64,000 nt of DNA. It comes from Gemmatimonadota bacterium. Its GTDB lineage: Bacteria > Gemmatimonadota > Gemmatimonadetes > Gemmatimonadales > GWC2-71-9. The translations under genes and the position numbers were made by a program. Each line of letters starts with the position of its first letter. Position 1 is the stretch's first letter. Location of the stretch: positions 64,001 to 128,000 of the forward strand of contig JAZDCY010000014.1 in assembly GCA_036679645.1 (NCBI GenBank), read 5' to 3'. Of this stretch, positions 41,002-63,705 are shown in pieces. Under the pieces are notes generated by a model. The model was given only the letters and a program-made list of their open reading frames with translations, had not been told where the DNA came from and did not search any database.

Positions 41002-41298
41002 ATGGGAAAGCGCCCATCCAAACGCGTCAAGGAGCCGGTCCAGGTCTATCTGGACGGGGCCGATCGCGACCTCTTGAAGGCCCTCGCGGAAAAGACGGGT
41101 TTGACCAAAGCCGAATTGCTGCGGCGCGGTCTCCGACAGCTCGCGGCCGGTGAGCTGGCAGAGAAGCCTCCCGGCTGGTCACTCGAGGCACTCGCGGGGC
41201 TAATCGTCGGCGGACCGGCCGACCTCTCAACTCGGCACGACGACTACCTCGCCGACGCCATAGAGGAGAAAAAGGGTGCCGGGGCGCGCTCTCGCTGA
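41002..41298 (+). CDS. vapB: RHH/CopG antitoxin
   Basis: PVQVYLD...LAEKTGLTKAELLRRGL; C-terminal DLSTRHDDYL typical of VapB. Confidence 0.85.
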   Translation: MGKRPSKRVKEPVQVYLDGADRDLLKALAEKTGLTKAELLRRGLRQLAAGELAEKPPGWSLEALAGLIVGGPADLSTRHDDYLADAIEEKKGAGARSR

Positions 41299-41689
41299 CA
41301 CAAGCGCGCTGTTGGCGCTCGCGGCACGCGACGATCAGTATCATCAGCGCGCGCATCAAGTCGCGACAGGCTTCATTGCGGCTGGCGGCCGGTTGGTCGG
41401 AACCGCACTCATCCTCGCAGAGCTGCACACGCTTCTGCTCCGTCGTACGGAGCCTATGGTGGCGCGTTCCGCACTAACTGCCCTTCTCGCAGACCCCGCC
41501 TATCAATGGCTGGATGTTCCCGTCGCACTGGAGCAGGCCGCTATGGATTCCTGGCTGGCTCGCTTCCAAGACCAGCGCTTCTCCCTCACCGACGCCGTGA
41601 GCTTCGAGGTGATGCGGCGCGAGCACATTCGCCACGCGTTCGCGTTCGATCAGGACTTCGTAACGGCGGGATTCGAGCTACTGGGATAG
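41276..41689 (+). CDS. vapC: VapC PIN-domain toxin
   Basis: ADTSA, DQYH, AE, FSLTDAVSF, FAFDQDF. Confidence 0.9.
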   Translation: MPGRALADTSALLALAARDDQYHQRAHQVATGFIAAGGRLVGTALILAELHTLLLRRTEPMVARSALTALLADPAYQWLDVPVALEQAAMDSWLARFQDQRFSLTDAVSFEVMRREHIRHAFAFDQDFVTAGFELLG

Positions 41690-44502: not shown

Positions 44503-44901
44503 CTACCGGAGCAGCCGCTCGATGCCGGGAACTTCGTCGAACGCGGAGTCGAACGTCAGAATTCTCTGCACTCCATGCCGCTCCATGGCCGCGACATGAA
44601 TCGCATCCCGCGCGGAAAGACGCTCTCTCTCGAGCACAACTGTCTTGGCTCGTTCGACGTCGGTGCGCTCTACCGGGAACACCTCATCGACAATGCCGAG
44701 GACCGCGTCGAACGCTGGCTGAATGGCCTCCCGACGACCGATCGCGACATAACGATGCAGGAGCTCCTGAAGCACCTCCGCATCGGTCACGAGTCGCTCT
44801 CGCTCGACAATGGCGCGCTCGAGCGCGTGCTGCGCCGTGGTCTTGTTGGGATGTGCGGACCCGACGAGATACATCGGGATACTGGAATCGACAAAGATCA
44901 C
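44503..44901 (-). CDS. vapC: VapC PIN-domain toxin
   Basis: MIFVDSS, DAEVLQE, ARDAIH, TFDSAFD; paralog of 32336-32740. Confidence 0.9.
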
Positions 44902-45152
44902 AGCCGCTCTCTGGCGTAGCCCCGCTCGATGTCACCCAACATCTCATCGATCTCGCCCGTGGGATACTCGTGGCGTACCGCCTCGCGAACCACGTGGAGC
45001 TTCCGGTCTGTGGGGGCCACCGCCTGACGCCGGCGCGCCGCACGCAGAGCCTGGCGGACCCACTCCGCGACGGTCATGCGGTTGCGTCGCGCCACCTGCT
45101 TGATCTCGCGCAACTCGGCGTCGTCCATGACCACCTGGAGTCTCTTACTCAT
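44898..45152 (-). CDS. vapB: RHH antitoxin
   Basis: [36 protein letters not shown]; overlaps the toxin start. Confidence 0.85.
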
Positions 45153-46932: not shown

Positions 46933-47328
46933 TCAGTATGAGGCAGCCTCTATGTCCGTTCGGGCAAAGTCGTCGCCGGTGAACAACAACGCTTCGTCCG
47001 CGAGACGGGCGGTCGCATAGGCCAGACAGTCGCCAAAGTTCAACGCCGCGGCATGTCGCCCGCGTCCGTAACGTAGCCACGCATTCATCGCCGTTCCGTA
47101 ATGCGCATCGGTAAACGGCACGATGGCGATATCGCCCTCGAGCAACAGACGCCCAACAATGCCGCGCGCATCGTGGTCCAGTCGTGCGGACAACACAATA
47201 GTCGTCTCGACGAGCGACGGCGCTCCGACGCTGATCTCCCGCGGCTCAGCCGCGATGGCATTCAGCAGACGATCGTGCATCGGTTCGCGCAGCGCGATGG
47301 CAACGAGCGCGGACGAGTCCACGATCAT
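46933..47328 (-). CDS. vapC: VapC PIN-domain toxin (VapC30-like)
   Basis: MIVDSSAL, E, YGRGRHAAALNFGDC, LLFTGDDF. Confidence 0.92.
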   Translation of the reverse strand: MIVDSSALVAIALREPMHDRLLNAIAAEPREISVGAPSLVETTIVLSARLDHDARGIVGRLLLEGDIAIVPFTDAHYGTAMNAWLRYGRGRHAAALNFGDCLAYATARLADEALLFTGDDFARTDIEAASY

Positions 47329-47642
47329 GCGCCGTGCGCACCGTAGCCGAGAATCGCGTCTTCTTCCTCGCGAGAGAGCACTTGTCCCAATTGATCCGTG
47401 GGCACCAGGGGCCAAACCTCTTGCTCCAGACAGCGCCGGAGCCGCTCGCCGCGATCGGCCAGCGGCGGTGCCGCCAGGTGCGCCTCACGAACCCTCGCCG
47501 CCCTGACAGCTCGTCCAACCGGAATCAGGAGCGCGACCGGAGTCCCCGCCTTGGCTATCGTTATCGTTGCCCCACGACGCACCCGTTCCAGGAGTCGGGA
47601 CAGATGTGTCTTCGCTTCGTGGATATTCACCATGTTGGACAT
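47325..47642 (-). CDS. Chimeric antitoxin: Phd/YefM N-terminus plus VapB (Rv0623-like) C-terminus
   Basis: VNIHEAKTHLSRLLERVRRG..ITIAKAGTPVA followed by ...EVWP...LSREEEDAILGYG. Confidence 0.75.
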   Translation of the reverse strand: MSNMVNIHEAKTHLSRLLERVRRGATITIAKAGTPVALLIPVGRAVRAARVREAHLAAPPLADRGERLRRCLEQEVWPLVPTDQLGQVLSREEEDAILGYGAHGA

Positions 47643-47728
47643 GCGCACCTCACTTGGTGCACACAAGTTAGTCTAGTTGCAGGACTAAGTCCATCTGTAG
47701 CCTCGCCCCGCCTCCACCTTGCCCTCTT

Positions 47729-50273: not shown

Positions 50274-51086
50274 TCAACCGAGCACCCGGCTCAGGAAGCT
50301 CTTGAGCCGGCCCCACGCATTCCGCGCGGGCTCCTCACGCAGCTCGCGATCCTGGCCCACGCGCAACCAGAAACCGTGATTCACCGCGTCGTAGACATGG
50401 ATGTCGTTGTCGATACCGATCGAGTCGAGCGCCGCCGCGAACCGCTCGACCTGGTCCGGCGGAATCCCCCGGTCCATCTCCGCGAACGTGCCGTAGACTG
50501 GGTGATCGAGACGTGCCAGCTCGGCGGGGTCTTCAACCAATGAGCCGTAGAAGATTGCCGTCGCGTCGTGGTGTGCCCCGCCGAGCGCGTAACTCAGGGC
50601 GATCCCACCCCCAAAGCACCAACCCATGACCCCGATCTTGCCGGTGACGTCAGCGCGGTCACGCAGTAGCCGTTGGGCCGCATCGAGGTTGCTGATGACC
50701 GCACCCATGTTCCCACGTGCTCCCTGCACCAGCGCCATGTTCTCGTCGCGATTCGCTCCCGTCTGTCCGCTGTAGAGATCGGCCGCGAGCGCGATGTATC
50801 CCTCGTCCGCGAACGCGTCCGCCACCTGGCGCACGCGATCGCCGAGCCCGTTCCACTCGTGAATGAGAATCAGCGCGGGGAACGGCCCGTCACCCTCGGG
50901 AACCGCGAGATACCCGCGGGTCGCGGTGTCTCCGTCCAGGTACATGACGGTCTCGCCGCGCGGAGGCGGCGCCGAGCCCAGGATGGCATCGGGAATGGAG
51001 GAGGTGACGGGTTCGTCCGCGGTCTCTTCGGCGGGCGCACAGGCAAGCGCGGCAGTCGCGAGTGCCAGAACAGCGTATCGATACAT
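50274..51086 (-). CDS. Dienelactone hydrolase family lipoprotein
   Basis: Lipobox ALAC; IHEWNGL, GWCFGGG, D, HGF; GGAG RBS before ATG 51086. Confidence 0.92.
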   Translation of the reverse strand: MYRYAVLALATAALACAPAEETADEPVTSSIPDAILGSAPPPRGETVMYLDGDTATRGYLAVPEGDGPFPALILIHEWNGLGDRVRQVADAFADEGYIALAADLYSGQTGANRDENMALVQGARGNMGAVISNLDAAQRLLRDRADVTGKIGVMGWCFGGGIALSYALGGAHHDATAIFYGSLVEDPAELARLDHPVYGTFAEMDRGIPPDQVERFAAALDSIGIDNDIHVYDAVNHGFWLRVGQDRELREEPARNAWGRLKSFLSRVLG

Positions 51087-51260: not shown

Positions 51261-52025
51261 GTGACACCAACCGCTAAGCAGGTTCTGCTGACCGCCCTGG
51301 TCGCGAGCTTCGCGATCCAGACGGCACTCGTCTACAGTGACGAGCGCGGCGAGCGGCTGACGGAGACGGCCATTCGCGGTCGGGAACTGTGGCACAAGAA
51401 CGCGTGTCAGGTCTGTCATCAGGTCTACGGCAACGGCGGCTTTCTGGGCCCCGACCTCACCAACGCCGCGAGCCGGGTCGATTCGATCCGGCTTGTTTCG
51501 CTACTGACCGCGGCAAGCGGGCAGATGCCCGCATTTCATTTCACGGATCAGGAGATCGCCGACCTGCGCGCGTATCTCGAAGCTCTGGATCGTCCCGATC
51601 TGGGACGCGGGCAGTTGCGTCTCGGGACGGCGGGAGCGGCACCGTGGCAACGGTTCACCGCTGTGATGGACGACGCGCTTCCCAAGGCCGACGCCGCCGT
51701 CCTGCGCGGTTGGGAGGTGTTGAGCAGGCGGCCCTGCACCGGATGTCATCTTCCGCTCGCCGCCGCGCCCGGCGGCGCTCCGGATCTCTCGCTCGCGGCG
51801 CGCGCGCTCTCGCCCAACGACCTTGCGGCGGTCCTTGCGGAGGGGAGACCGTCGAAAGGCATGCCACCACCAATACCCCCGCTCAACCCACAGGAACGCG
51901 ATGACCTCACGGCGCTCCTCATCTGGTTCGCGGAGCGACGCGACACGTTGGTAGCGTCGCTGCGCGCGCTCGAGGAGCAACGATCATTTCAGTGGCGTGC
52001 GATCCCGTGGTGGGAATACAGGTGA
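51261..52025 (+). CDS. Membrane-anchored diheme cytochrome c (NorC-like N-terminal domain)
   Basis: TM anchor; CQVCH..G.GGFLGPDLTN...QMP; second heme CTGCH...GMP. Confidence 0.88.
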   Translation: MTPTAKQVLLTALVASFAIQTALVYSDERGERLTETAIRGRELWHKNACQVCHQVYGNGGFLGPDLTNAASRVDSIRLVSLLTAASGQMPAFHFTDQEIADLRAYLEALDRPDLGRGQLRLGTAGAAPWQRFTAVMDDALPKADAAVLRGWEVLSRRPCTGCHLPLAAAPGGAPDLSLAARALSPNDLAAVLAEGRPSKGMPPPIPPLNPQERDDLTALLIWFAERRDTLVASLRALEEQRSFQWRAIPWWEYR

Positions 52026-53461
52026 CCGACACAGCGCGCAGGCTCGAAGAGGGCGCCGATTTCGGCGACGCGGCACCGGACCATGCTGTCGAGGTCGATC
52101 CCGTCCGGCGATTCGCCACGATCATCTTCTTCCGCGGGTCCTTGGTGGCCATCGCGGTCACGCTCGCCGCCGGTCTCCTGGCGGCACTCTATTCGATCCC
52201 GTCGTTCGCTCCCGTCATGCAGGGTATCGGCCTCGACATGCGACAGCTACGGCCAATCCACACGACATTCGCCGGGGCCTGGATCTTCCTCGGCGGGGCG
52301 ACGGTCGTGTATCGGTTCCTGGAAGATCAGGCGGGCCCCATCACGGAGGGTGATAGGTGGCGCTTGCGCGCGCAGGTCGTGGTGTGGGCCGCCGCGGGGG
52401 CCGGCATTCTCATCACGCTGTTGCTTGGGATCGGGTCGGGCCGGGAGTACGTGGGGTTCCATCCCGGGTTCTCACTGCTGATCGTGCTGGGCTGGCTCTG
52501 CTACGTCTGGAACTTCTATCGTGTGATGCGCCATTCGTTCTGGAAGCAGCCGCTGCACGTCACCATGTGGGGCGTCGCCCTGCTCTTCTTCCTGTACACA
52601 TTCACCGAGCAACATGCGTACCTGCTTCCGGGCATCTTTGCCGACCCCATTCACGACCTGCGGGTGCAGTGGAAGGCCACCGGCACCCTGGTGGGGAGTT
52701 TCAATCTCTTCGTCTACGGCACGATCATCTACGCGAGCGCGCGCATCTCCGGAAACGAGAGCTACTGCTACTCCAAGACTGCCTACGCCCTCTTCACCGT
52801 GGGACTACTCAATTCGTTCACGAACTTCGGCCACCACACATACCATCTCCCCCAACGCGCGTTGGTGAACTGGATTTCGTTCGTGGTGAGCATGACGGAG
52901 ATCATCATCCTCACCCGCGCCGTGTCCGATCTCTGGCACATCATCCGCGACAAGGTCACCCAACCGTTCAGCGCCGCACGCGCGTGCTTCCTCGCCGCCA
53001 AGTGGTGGACGATCGCCATCCTACTCACATCGGTGATCATCTCCGTTCCGCCGCTCAATGCGATCATTCATGGCACTTATGCGGTCACCGGACACGCTAT
53101 GGGCGCTACGATCGGGATCGATACCATGATCCTGCTGGGCGCGTTGTTCTGGATCCTCCCGCGCATTGCGGGGGACACGAACACGCTGGTGGATACACGC
53201 GGCATGCAGATGGCGATTGTGGGACTGAACGTCGCGGTGGCGGCGCTGGTGCTCTGGCTCCACATCTCGGGCCTCACAACAGGCATCACGCGCGCCGCAT
53301 TCGCGCCCGGTGAAGCGTACGTGCAGCCTGCGTGGTTGAGCGCATCCAACGGCATCGCGTTTGCCGTCACGGGCAGCCTGTCAATCGTGTTCTTCACGAT
53401 CCTTCTCGCCGCACTGATACCGGCTGCGTTCCGATCACCCGACGGCGGAGGCGTCACGTGA
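52022..53461 (+). CDS. Heme-copper oxidase superfamily subunit I, NorB-like with atypical ligands
   Basis: About 12 TM helices; RPIHT, GREY, FGHHTYH, SMTE, NAIIHGTYAVTGHAM; GTGA-coupled to the cytochrome c. Confidence 0.8.
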   Translation: MTDTARRLEEGADFGDAAPDHAVEVDPVRRFATIIFFRGSLVAIAVTLAAGLLAALYSIPSFAPVMQGIGLDMRQLRPIHTTFAGAWIFLGGATVVYRFLEDQAGPITEGDRWRLRAQVVVWAAAGAGILITLLLGIGSGREYVGFHPGFSLLIVLGWLCYVWNFYRVMRHSFWKQPLHVTMWGVALLFFLYTFTEQHAYLLPGIFADPIHDLRVQWKATGTLVGSFNLFVYGTIIYASARISGNESYCYSKTAYALFTVGLLNSFTNFGHHTYHLPQRALVNWISFVVSMTEIIILTRAVSDLWHIIRDKVTQPFSAARACFLAAKWWTIAILLTSVIISVPPLNAIIHGTYAVTGHAMGATIGIDTMILLGALFWILPRIAGDTNTLVDTRGMQMAIVGLNVAVAALVLWLHISGLTTGITRAAFAPGEAYVQPAWLSASNGIAFAVTGSLSIVFFTILLAALIPAAFRSPDGGGVT

Positions 53462-54465
53462 GTTGTCTCGTGATCTCGGCCGCTGAGGTGCGCGCCCTGT
53501 TGCCAATGCAGGTGTGTATCGACCTGATGGCAGAGGCGCTTGAGACCCTGGCGCGCGGGGGCGGCATCAATCCGCTGCGCACCGGGATCCGCCTGCCGCA
53601 CGATCGCGGCATCCTGGGGATGATGCCTGGTCAGATGGACACGCCAGACACGTTCGGACTCAAGGTCGTCTCGGTCTTCCCCGGCAATCACGGCACGGCG
53701 TACGACTCACATCAGGGTACCGTGATGCTCTTCGAGACCGACCACGGCACGCCGGTCGCCATCGTTGACGCGAGCGCCATCACCGCCATTCGCACTGCAG
53801 CGGCGAGTGGCGTCGCCACGCGGTTGCTCGCCCGGGAAAACGCGAAGGAACTTGCGGTGCTCGGCTCAGGTGTGCAGGCGCGGTCCCACCTGGAGGCGAT
53901 GACCTGCGTCAGGCCCATCACACGTGCCCGCGTGTTCGGGCGCGACCGCCACCGGCGCGAGCGTTGCGCTCGCGACGCCGCCAGCACGCTAGGGATTGCC
54001 GTCGAGCCGGTGGAGTCGGCGCGGGCCGCCGTGGACCACGCCGATATAGTCTGCACGACGACGTCTTCGAAGGAACCGGTCCTCATGGGCGATTGGCTCA
54101 CACCGGGATGCCACATCAACGCGGTCGGTTCGAGCGTCCGCTGGACCCGCGAACTGGACACGGCCGCAGTGCTCGCGTCGCGCCTGTTCGTCGACCGCGT
54201 GGAGTCTACGGTGAACGAGGCCGGTGATTTCCTGTTTCCCAAGCAGGAAGGAGCGCTCGACGAGAGTCACATCGTGGGCGAGATCGGCGACATCCTCACA
54301 GGCGCGATCGACGGCCGGGGTTCCGAACACGAGATCACACTCTTCAAGTCGTTGGGGCTCGCGGTGGAGGACCTCGCCGCCGCACACTACGTGTACCAAC
54401 GGGCGGTAGAGACCGGTGCCGGGACGTCGGTGGAATTGGGCGGCGAGGGCAGTGCGCCCGCTTGA
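53458..54465 (+). CDS. Ornithine cyclodeaminase / mu-crystallin family protein
   Basis: GLKVVSVFPGN, ITAIRTAAAS, GSGVQA, HINAVGS, FKSLGLAVEDL. Confidence 0.92.
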   Translation: MSCLVISAAEVRALLPMQVCIDLMAEALETLARGGGINPLRTGIRLPHDRGILGMMPGQMDTPDTFGLKVVSVFPGNHGTAYDSHQGTVMLFETDHGTPVAIVDASAITAIRTAAASGVATRLLARENAKELAVLGSGVQARSHLEAMTCVRPITRARVFGRDRHRRERCARDAASTLGIAVEPVESARAAVDHADIVCTTTSSKEPVLMGDWLTPGCHINAVGSSVRWTRELDTAAVLASRLFVDRVESTVNEAGDFLFPKQEGALDESHIVGEIGDILTGAIDGRGSEHEITLFKSLGLAVEDLAAAHYVYQRAVETGAGTSVELGGEGSAPA

Positions 54466-55414
54466 GCCGGTAGCGCTCGATGAGATCGTCGCCGCACGCG
54501 AGCGCATAGCCGGCAGCGCGCTCCGCACCCCACTGGTTCGGCTGAACGCCGAGACAGACCACGAGATCTACCTCAAGCTCGAGAACCTGCAGCCGATCGG
54601 GTCGTTCAAGCTGCGTGGCGCCGGCAACGCGTTACGGAAGATGGAGCGTGCGTTACTCGCGAACGGAGTGTACACAGCGAGCGCCGGCAATATGGCTCAG
54701 GGACTTGCGTGGAGCGCGCGCGAACTCGGGGTTCCGTGTCACGTAGTCGTCCCCGACAACGCACCGCAGACGAAGCTCGACGCCATCGCGCGCCTCGGCG
54801 GCAGCGTCATCAAGGTGCCGTTCGACGAGTGGTGGAACGTGATCGTCACGCACGAATACGCGGGTCTAGACGCCACATTCGTCCACCCCGTGAGCAACGC
54901 GGATGTCATGGCGGGGAATGGAACCATCGGGCTCGAGATCCTCGAGGATCTTCCCGACGTGGAGACGGTTCTGGTTCCCTTCGGTGGCGGCGGGCTGAGC
55001 TGCGGCATCGCCGCCGCACTGCGCGCAAAACGCCCGTCCGCAAGCGTCTATGCATGTGAGGTAGAGACCGCGGCCCCGCTCGCGGCGTCGTTCCAAGCTG
55101 GCCGGGCAACCGAGGTGAAACGGGTACAGACGTTCATCGACGGTATTGGCGGCAAGAGTGTGCTCGAGGAGATGTGGCCGGTCGCCAAGGAACTGCTCGC
55201 CGGATCGCTCGTTACGTCCGTTGCGGAGATCGTAGCCGCGGTGAAGCTGCTGGTCGAGCGCAACCGGGTGATCGCCGAAGGAGCAGGAGCGGCACCGGTG
55301 GCGGTGGCGCTTGGAGGAGCCGTCGACCGGGGACCGGTTGTGTGTGTCGTGTCGGGTGGGAACATCGATCTTCGGAAACTCGAAATGATTCTCCGCGGAG
55401 AGGTGCCCGGTTGA
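54452..55414 (+). CDS. PLP-dependent threonine/serine dehydratase family protein
   Basis: LKLENLQPIGSFKLRGA, ASAGN, PFGGGGL, SGGN. Confidence 0.92.
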   Translation: MRPLEPVALDEIVAARERIAGSALRTPLVRLNAETDHEIYLKLENLQPIGSFKLRGAGNALRKMERALLANGVYTASAGNMAQGLAWSARELGVPCHVVVPDNAPQTKLDAIARLGGSVIKVPFDEWWNVIVTHEYAGLDATFVHPVSNADVMAGNGTIGLEILEDLPDVETVLVPFGGGGLSCGIAAALRAKRPSASVYACEVETAAPLAASFQAGRATEVKRVQTFIDGIGGKSVLEEMWPVAKELLAGSLVTSVAEIVAAVKLLVERNRVIAEGAGAAPVAVALGGAVDRGPVVCVVSGGNIDLRKLEMILRGEVPG

Positions 55415-62682: not shown

Positions 62683-63171
62683 ATGACCAAGACCCAACAG
62701 CTGCAAATCCGCGTGTCACCAACGGAGAAGGCTCGCGTCAAGCGGCTTGCCCGCCAGGCGGGGCAGGACGTGTCCGCGTACGTCCTCTCGCGGGTGTTTT
62801 CCCCTAGTGCGGATCGGTTCGCCGCGCTGTTGCGGCTGCTTCGGCGTGACCGTGATCGTCGGTTTGCGCTGGCCGAGCTGAATGACTTTTTGAGTGCGCT
62901 CGCGCCTGTGCAGGTCCCCGACGCGGTGGCGCATGCCGACCTTGGCGCTCTCTCGCCGTTTCTCGGGAACTATGTCGCCGCGATGGTAGAGCAGGCCGCC
63001 GGTCAGAAGGGCGTCGAGCCGCCCGAGTGGGTTCGGGATGTCGCGCCCCTCGACGAGCCACACTTCGGTGCGGATCTGAAACGTCTGCGTATGTATTTGT
63101 TGCGCGCGGCACCGGTGGCGTTCAAGCGTCGCAACATCTTCGTCGATGCCGCGGTCGGTGACCGGGTGTAA
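62683..63171 (+). CDS. RHH-domain protein, putative antitoxin/regulator of the NTase
   Basis: QLQIRVSPTEKARVKRLARQAGQDVSAYVL; C-terminal PPEW...P.F...PVAFKRRNIFVD. Confidence 0.75.
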   Translation: MTKTQQLQIRVSPTEKARVKRLARQAGQDVSAYVLSRVFSPSADRFAALLRLLRRDRDRRFALAELNDFLSALAPVQVPDAVAHADLGALSPFLGNYVAAMVEQAAGQKGVEPPEWVRDVAPLDEPHFGADLKRLRMYLLRAAPVAFKRRNIFVDAAVGDRV

Positions 63172-63177
63172 CGGAGC

Positions 63178-63705
63178 GTGCACCCGATCAAGCTGACCAG
63201 GGCCGATATCAACCGGCTCCTCGAACTGTTGAACGACGAGCTCGCCGAGGACGGTACGGAAGCTGAGGTGTACCTGGTTGGCGGTGCCGTCATGTGTCTG
63301 GCGCTCGACGCGCGAGCGGCGACCCGCGACGTGGATGCGTACTTTCGACCCACGCAACGCGTTCGCGAAGCGGCAGCCAGGGTGGCGGCAAAGGCCGGTG
63401 TCCCCGACACGTGGCTGAACGACGCGGTAAAGGGATACCTGAGTCCTCGCGGCGACTTCGACGCCTACCTAGAACTCTCACATCTCCGCGTCTTCGTGGC
63501 GCAACCAGCGTACCTGCTCGCCATGAAATGTGCGGCAATGCGTCTTGGCGAAGAGTTCCACGACCTGGACGATGTCCGCTTCCTGCTACGCTACCTCAAC
63601 ATCACGAGGGTGGAGGAAGCACTCGGGTTGGTCAACAAGTACTTCTCCGAGTCGGAGCTTCTCCCCAAGACGCGATTAGTGTTGGAGGAACTGCTCGCTG
63701 GGTAG
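63178..63705 (+). CDS. Nucleotidyltransferase-fold protein (DUF6036-like)
   Basis: YLVGGAVM, RAATRDVDA, WLND, YLLAMKC..R...DLDD. Confidence 0.82.
   Translation: MHPIKLTRADINRLLELLNDELAEDGTEAEVYLVGGAVMCLALDARAATRDVDAYFRPTQRVREAAARVAAKAGVPDTWLNDAVKGYLSPRGDFDAYLELSHLRVFVAQPAYLLAMKCAAMRLGEEFHDLDDVRFLLRYLNITRVEEALGLVNKYFSESELLPKTRLVLEELLAG

Follow-up and report, generated by a model that had tools for sequence, protein, structure and literature searches.

The closest described relatives of the gene pair reported here are the N2Ored proteins, a cNOR-related family of heme-copper enzymes that, according to Murali et al. (2024), 'might serve' as a nitrous oxide (N2O) reductase insensitive to both sulfide and acetylene and that occurs in 293 GTDB genomes (PMC11214002). 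The preprint of that article makes the same proposal in one sentence, and Dataset S6 of PMC11214002 records N2Ored in marine Gemmatimonadota. The NorCB-like pair described here lies in a 64,000-nucleotide stretch of DNA (the window) from a Gemmatimonadota bacterium (assembly GCA_036679645.1, contig JAZDCY010000014.1, positions 64,001 to 128,000), and it very probably belongs to this family of putative N2O reductases (PMC11214002). The family has thus already been named in print; new here are a corrected residue map, a sister subclade, and doubt about the N2O label. We propose, with a probability of roughly 0.45, that the pair is a cytochrome-c-fed nitric oxide (NO) reductase with a two-histidine, one-glutamate metal site, serving mainly in NO removal rather than in classical denitrification.

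A literature search turned up neither an assay nor a residue-level description of N2Ored (the Supporting Information Appendix of PMC11214002 may contain the latter), and the available portions of PMC10390337 and PMC8879329 hold nothing on the family. An earlier note, made from the sequence of the window alone, had described a distinct heme-copper subfamily with its non-haem metal site lost or remodelled and a His/Met-ligated low-spin haem, and had allowed that it might fall in a family already characterised. The residue evidence given below is consistent with this description, and the family proves to be already delineated but, as far as the article's text goes, not characterised (PMC11214002).

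Ligand changes are found in other heme-copper families as well. By the definitions of PMC11214002, nNOR and gNOR are derived from the B family and have cupredoxin subunits. The low-spin haem of nNOR is His/Met-ligated, as predicted here, and Murali et al. expect a potential of about +150 mV for it (PMC11214002). NOD derives from qNOR as a fused chain; it has no haem c, and Asn replaces His in it (PMC3413370). One metal His is replaced in gNOR and one in NOD, and the ligand changes of nNOR, gNOR, NOD and the present pair are convergent.

The gene pair and its nearest solved relatives

The two open reading frames (ORFs) lie on the forward strand and share a GTGA overlap. The first (51261-52025) encodes the small subunit, a NorC-like protein of 254 amino acids in which domain and alignment evidence identifies an N-terminal membrane helix as anchor, two class I cytochrome c domains (two CxxCH motifs, Pfam cytochrome c) and a conserved C-terminal PWWE tail. 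The second (52022-53461) encodes the large subunit, a NorB-like heme-copper superfamily subunit I of 479 amino acids with 12 membrane helices that matches Pfam PF00115 (COX1) at E 1.4e-21.

The AlphaFold model of the large subunit is confident and has 12 helices (predicted local distance difference test, pLDDT, 91.7). Its best fold matches are cbb3 and cNOR, which are tied (Z 36-38, root-mean-square deviation about 3 Å, 425-445 residues aligned), the cbb3 subunit CcoN matching at Z 37-38. A search of the PDB with the single large-subunit sequence gave zero matches. A profile search succeeded, and the nearest solved relatives it returned are cNORs (4xyd, E 3e-30; 3o0r, E 3e-23). The pair shares with the cNORs of P. 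aeruginosa (3O0R) and R. denitrificans (4XYD) the norC-norB gene order, the anchored NorC-like cytochrome c and the predicted heterodimer. However, the large subunit is only 14-18% identical to cNOR, and it falls in a separate clade.

The earlier note had also remarked that norQ and norD are not adjacent. NorQ was indeed not found anywhere in the genome, which is 92.7% complete; however, 34 of 259 cNORs lack norQD (PMC12067857), and the missing genes are therefore not diagnostic.

Residue map of the large subunit

Besides the PDB profile search, the residue map rests on an alignment of the large subunit to four cNORs, one qNOR and three CcoN proteins. For the histidines H60, H207, H258, H259, H347 and H349 we use what we take to be P. 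aeruginosa NorB numbering. The numbering of R57, R134, E135, E138, D198, E211, E215 and E280 in the same protein, and the role of E135, follow PMC3431322. All motifs that the earlier note had quoted (RPIHT, FGHHTYH, SMTE, WKATGTLVGSFN and GHAM) are present.

Four of the six conserved cNOR histidines are kept. In helix II, Arg77 and His80 (52250..52261) correspond to R57 and H60, and His80, found in 321 of the 325 family members described below, would be the first ligand of low-spin haem b. His271 and His272 in helix VII (52832..52837; 322/325 each) correspond to H258 and H259, the two remaining ligand positions for the non-haem metal, and His358 in helix X (323/325) corresponds to H347, proximal to haem b3. 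Also kept are Arg141 and Glu142 of a GREY motif (52442..52447), which align with R134 and the Ca2+ ligand position E135, as well as Asp212 at D198. Glu293 in helix VIII (52898..52900; 323/325) occupies the E280 position and is predicted to be either a third metal ligand or a proton donor. The alignment thus bears out the earlier reading that the helix II His, the helix VII HH pair and the helix VIII Glu are retained.

The other two histidines are replaced, H207 by Gly221 and H349 by Met360 (319/325), the latter as the earlier note had it. The His358-Ala-Met360 segment (53093..53101) would therefore supply Met for the second His of the low-spin haem. Among Glu211, Glu215 and Glu280 only the last position is kept, and E138 is replaced by Gly145. 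Helix VI is rebuilt over Q216-N228 (52667..52705), with Lys218, Gly221 (324/325), a one-residue deletion at the Glu211 position that CcoN shares, and Asn228 (325/325) at the Glu215 position. A family-specific residue, Glu196 (52607..52609), is invariant (325/325 members, and 16/16 in the sister subclade).

The register of helix VI follows from its gapless alignment with cbb3 CcoN (D-x3-QWKATGTLVG in the query against D-x3-QWWYGHNAVG), which makes Gly221, not Thr220, the counterpart of the lost His. A register that places Thr220 at this position was dropped, because CcoN can then no longer be matched at D-x3-QW and VG. Of the three helix VI changes in the earlier note, Glu to Asn is upheld by the alignment as Glu215 to Asn228, while His to Thr becomes His to Gly, and the supposed Glu to Val is a deletion.

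In addition to this register without the Glu insert (QW..VG), the large subunit shares the RPxH and REY motifs with CcoN. However, the three CuB histidines and the cross-linked helix VII tyrosine that mark the C family are not present. The active-site Tyr of CcoN aligns to S265 or N264 depending on the alignment, neither of which is Tyr, and the helix VI His to which it is cross-linked is absent, so that no His-Tyr cofactor can form. Furthermore, the query has the E280-type Glu, the ccoOQP operon is absent, and the NCBIfam CcoNO model scores 14.6 bits against a cut-off of 1080.

Conservation and phylogeny

We identified 427 homologues among 7,999 candidates and aligned the query with the 119 non-self sequences of the 120 listed. 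G221, N228, H271, H272, E293, H358 and M360 are kept in all 120 rows. Clustering at 50% left 307 representatives. A pooled set of 343 distinct proteins of at least 340 amino acids was split by residue 218 into 325 members with Lys and 16 with His, two rows having neither. In the Lys218 members, in addition to the counts given above, Y232 is kept in 324 and N264 in 320, and a His anywhere in residues 215-236 occurs in just 2. The substitutions are thus conserved among homologues. That the pair is a cNOR decayed in a single strain is refuted by these numbers, as the pattern is complete in the 120 close rows, exceeds 98% of the 325 members at key sites, and belongs to a clade of its own (SH-like approximate likelihood ratio test, SH-aLRT, 99).

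The 16 members with His218 form a sister subclade (SH-aLRT 100). These proteins have Asp at the lost-His position 221 (15/16), Ala in place of Glu293 (15/16) and often HHH in helix VII (11/16), and they retain the His/Met pattern. The apparent shift of a carboxylate from position 293 to 221 suggests that the pocket needs one carboxylate. Proteins of the subclade include P0225, P0230, P0232, P0234, P0239, P0246, P0251, P0255, P0257, P0261, P0262 and P0268-P0270.

In a quick tree of 65 rows with SH-aLRT support and no bootstrap, the 53 family rows are split off by a single branch (SH-aLRT 99), separate from cNOR plus qNOR (100) and from the C family (100). The large subunit branches outside the cNOR clade, which is represented by four references, all proteobacterial. 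This tree does not fix the branch order of the family relative to cNOR plus qNOR and C. An origin shared with nNOR or gNOR finds little in the sequences: the B-family ba3 match reaches only E 0.005, and the partner is a cytochrome c, not a cupredoxin. The two genes with c haems likewise differ from the single fused chain of NOD.

The earlier note had raised a gas-sensing or electron-transfer role. A gas sensor or pure electron-transfer module would fit the loss of catalytic residues and the extra c haem, but it is improbable. A domain scan of the six longest family members found a signalling domain in none, only cytochrome c domains in five, and so gave the sensing role no footing. Moreover, no recurring regulator adjoins the 80 GTDB loci considered below, and the haem chain ends at an open b3 site with no evident exit.

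Fused forms occur in the family (P0146, P0166, P0182, P0183 and P0206), in which the large subunit continues into cytochrome c domains at its C-terminus, in some cases together with a FixO-like piece; such fused C-terminal cytochromes c are a further likeness of some relatives to the cbb3 system. A plasmid search for the family gave just weak matches at the cbb3/cNOR level.

Membership in N2Ored

We assigned the pair to N2Ored by elimination in the two genomes whose names match rows of Dataset S6, and both agree. SZUA-318 has four COX1 matches, namely an A-type, a C-type, an eNOR-like protein and a 64% identical homologue of the query, and its S6 row reads A1 C1 eNOR1 N2Ored1. WSZJ01 has two A-type matches, one qNOR/NOD-like protein and a 43% identical homologue, against a row of A2 NOD1 N2Ored1. 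The heme-copper inventories of four further genomes (G002-G005) are compatible with N2Ored but are not tied to S6 rows. The query also shares with N2Ored the position of subunit I in the C-family/cNOR/qNOR branch, in its own clade, the absence of an active-site tyrosine, and the taxa (Bacteroidota, Planctomycetota, marine Gemmatimonadota, Vicinamibacterales and Gammaproteobacteria).

Two points speak against membership. None of the 11 N2Ored leaf accessions is among the cluster members examined (locus L078 is MBU21765.1), and PMC11214002 names gNOR as the first family in which an active-site His is lost. NOD has also lost a metal His (PMC3413370), and the statement about gNOR fits neither NOD nor N2Ored. 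The query clade is distinguished within N2Ored by its dihaem partner (the Bacteroidota-type partner is monohaem), by Gly at the E138 position and by the lack of nos or NO-stress neighbours. We found no difference that removes the query from N2Ored.

F. croceum and C. normanense are listed with CNOR 0 and N2Ored 1 in Dataset S6 and with CNOR 1 in Dataset S8 (PMC11214002). The pathway tallies of that article may therefore count N2Ored as cNOR.

The small subunit and the predicted complex

The first haem c site of the small subunit (C49-x2-C52-H53, 51405..51419) aligns with the haem site of four NorC sequences and is invariant (30/30), with Met89 (51525-51527) as axial ligand. The second (C159-x2-C162-H163, 51735..51749) is equally invariant (30/30), has Met201 (51861-51863) as axial ligand, and is likely the outer haem through which electrons enter. 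This second haem, which the earlier note had recognised and cNOR lacks, is usual in this clade. Among the best 80 GTDB loci of this clade (552 of 600 candidates were confirmed, mostly Gemmatimonadota and Planctomycetota records), a NorC-like partner gene is present in 76, and two haem sites are encoded by 70 of the 77 ORFs of this kind. In a second set of 80 metagenome loci, called Bacteroidota-type from the taxa of named relatives, all 69 partners are monohaem. The second haem c is specific to this clade.

The haems also bear on other N-oxide chemistry, such as NO dismutation or the reduction of nitrite or hydroxylamine. Such chemistry has a precedent in NOD, in which one metal His and one Glu are missing as well (PMC3413370). 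However, NOD lost its electron-entry site, while the c haems of N2Ored are retained or even increased in number, which speaks for net reduction; NOD also lost a different His on a different branch. We consider this alternative quite unlikely.

The two subunits are predicted to bind each other. The complex scores 0.90, compared with 0.02 for the best control, and the mark applied is reached by 116 of 157 solved pairs and 2 of 215 mismatched pairs. At least 89% of contacts are shared between runs, and the partner has a pLDDT of at least 83. The result may reflect likeness to solved cNOR. In the model, the small subunit contacts the large one through its anchor helix, its first haem domain and its PWWE tail; no residue in 126-240 counts as a confident contact. 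Lys218 had been considered as a metal ligand, and this candidate was weakened by the model, which sets the residue at the subunit interface.

Proposed function

Starting from the observed fold, family, residue pattern and operon pairing, we propose that this membrane haem complex converts 2 NO to N2O. Electrons would pass from a periplasmic donor to the outer haem c, the NorC-like haem c, the His80/Met360 low-spin haem b and finally haem b3 at His358, with Ca2+ at Glu142/Arg77 bridging the two b haems. Met ligation should raise the potential of the low-spin haem. A second metal, probably Fe, would be held by His271, His272 and Glu293 as a 2-His-1-carboxylate site, and the new polar residues N228, Y232, N264, N268 and S290 would line the pocket or a proton path. 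There is precedent for such a site, as a 2-His-1-Glu iron beside haem reduced NO in a myoglobin model (PMC11214002). The tyrosine required for O2 reduction is not present, and the member counts indicate selection to retain the positions for the haems, for Ca2+ and for the two metal-binding His.

The own genome of the pair encodes narG with narHJI, narK and ric, as well as a NirK-like gene that falls short of the curated cut-off. The pair is accompanied by only two other heme-copper enzymes, both A-type oxidases. NosZ, Hcp and flavodiiron protein were searched for along with NorQ and none was found. A cytochrome c gene, narGHJI, narK-like transporter genes and ric form one cluster (G000:C11:22466-34300); a short NirK-like protein (G000:C54:29436-30521), an eight-haem protein resembling hydroxylamine oxidoreductase (G000:C6:44415-45671) and a second eight-haem protein (G000:C73:9224-11191) are encoded elsewhere.

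We tallied 301 genomes of the phylum, including G160, which is flagged as unpublished, and found 22 carriers of the family; all co-occurrence p values given here overstate the associations, as kin are not independent. Carriers more often have narG (4/22 vs 11/279, p 0.017), also when counted by genus (4/9 vs 10/117, p 0.009). Bacteroidota-type relatives, moreover, often adjoin Rrf2, Ric or hemerythrin genes and nos genes. Genome context fits NO removal better than N2O reduction.

Several observations weigh against the NO reductase proposal. Glu211 and Glu138 are reported to be essential in cNOR (PMC3431322), and both are gone here, Glu138 in this clade. FeB is called essential in all NO reductase mechanisms (PMC12067857). 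In an alignment with four NorC sequences the small subunit retains neither E57c nor E70c of the NorC channel, and the complex model sets Lys218 opposite V24 at the end of the partner helix, not naming it at the active site. In the 80 GTDB loci, tblastn with representatives of NosZ, NosD, NosL, Ric, Rrf2 and hemerythrin gave 0 matches. No other NO reductase was found in the own genome, but flavohaemoglobin and nirS lay outside the searches. Across the phylum, nirK-like matches are rarer in carriers (2/22 vs 106/279), and a single genus (g77) supplies 14 of the 22 carriers, none of these 14 having a match for narG, nirK or nosZ. G073, a genome of the same genus as ours, has narG and a NirK-like gene without the pair. 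In a Planctomycetota class of 111 genomes nirK is found in 7 of 29 carriers and 2 of 82 others, but each of these 9 has another NO reductase, either eNOR-like or a canonical cNOR, and there is no gap for the pair to fill there. We therefore dropped this co-occurrence as support for NO reduction. A nirS search in the class gave zero matches, as did its controls, and is therefore uninformative.

In five Planctomycetota genomes (L133, L135, L138, L156 and L161) a degenerate COX1-like gene, which lacks the HH pair and keeps PAHYH, lies directly upstream of the eNOR-like subunit I.

N2O reduction and scavenging as alternatives

The published proposal (PMC11214002) is a NosZ-independent, sulfide- and acetylene-resistant reduction of N2O to N2. 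An enlarged pocket, together with a His/Met haem of high potential, would fit a different gas, and in the phylum carriers seldom have nosZ (3/22 vs 112/279, p 0.013). However, that negative link depends on the one genus that holds 14 of the 22 carriers, and no nosZ exclusion is seen in the Planctomycetota class (6/29 vs 14/82, p 0.78). As the exclusion is not general, we dropped it as support. No other N2O-making enzyme was found in the own genome, and Bacteroidota-type copies often lie beside nos genes (10/39 loci). The organisms themselves also raise doubt. Flexibacter canadensis is, we assume, the same organism as Solitalea canadensis. The proposal cites two F. canadensis papers (PMC11214002), and the S. 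canadensis genome is listed with N2Ored 1 plus nosZ and nosD. F. croceum, C. normanense, J022 and SZUA-318 are also listed with nosZ and nosD. The N2O label of the family is thus weakly based, and we regard N2O reduction by the pair as unlikely.

The neighbour counts for the Bacteroidota-type set rest on 39 of its 80 loci (at least 9 kb), with the 41 shorter ones excluded. NosZ, NosD or NosL is found in 10 of the 39, Rrf2, Ric or hemerythrin in 15, and either group in 19. Other recurring neighbours across these loci (L162-L241) are a 408-amino-acid membrane protein (16 loci) and a 603-amino-acid protein (13 loci), neither of which matches Pfam or NCBIfam, as well as tryptophanase-like genes (17) and MbnP/MbnH-like pairs (7). 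In the 80 GTDB loci, apart from the partner and shadow ORFs, no neighbour occurs in more than 16 loci.

A somewhat stronger competitor, though still doubtful, is a single-haem scavenger with no second metal, in which haem b3 with His271, His272 and Glu293 as acid-base residues would slowly reduce O2, H2O2 or NO as a protective electron sink at low oxygen. Two of the three metal histidines are left and Glu211 is deleted, NorQ is missing from the genome, and many carriers have no matches to N-oxide enzymes. Bacteroidota-type neighbours (Crp/Fnr, tryptophanase-like, NadB and proline dehydrogenase) can be read as a general low-oxygen set, and in T. thermophilus a cNOR devoid of non-haem iron retained a similar low activity (PMC12067857). 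However, the adjacent His pair and the Glu are near-invariant, and the carboxylate shift in the sister subclade is as expected for metal ligands. The Tyr for four-electron O2 chemistry is also lacking.

Significance

Searching with one Bacteroidota-type query retrieved 3,105 proteins whose E values were 1e-50 or lower. Family members are named automatically as norB or cbb3 subunit I, and in this way the family enters inventories of N2O sources and sinks under a putative name. Whether these enzymes make N2O, remove it or do neither would alter such counts. An enzyme of the heme-copper superfamily that lacks the helix VI His would also probe what share of the binuclear site is needed for NO chemistry. 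The present window adds one member and the corrected residue map. The family might even be a widespread copper-free, NosZ-independent N-oxide sink, a two-His haem enzyme reducing N2O, or NO fully, to N2. We think this unlikely; if true, thousands of marine and freshwater bacteria annotated with norB or ccoN would be concerned, and counted N2O sources would be sinks.

Neighbouring genes in the window

A promoter scan at the locus found 0 promoters where 0.7 were expected. Downstream of the pair (53470-55414) lie ornithine cyclodeaminase-family and pyridoxal phosphate-dependent genes, and upstream (50274-51086), in divergent orientation, a dienelactone hydrolase-family gene; no functional tie of either to the pair was seen. 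Elsewhere in the window are four small two-gene units (41002-41689, 44503-45152, 46933-47666 and 62683-63705), which we take to resemble antitoxin/PIN-domain or nucleotidyltransferase pairs.

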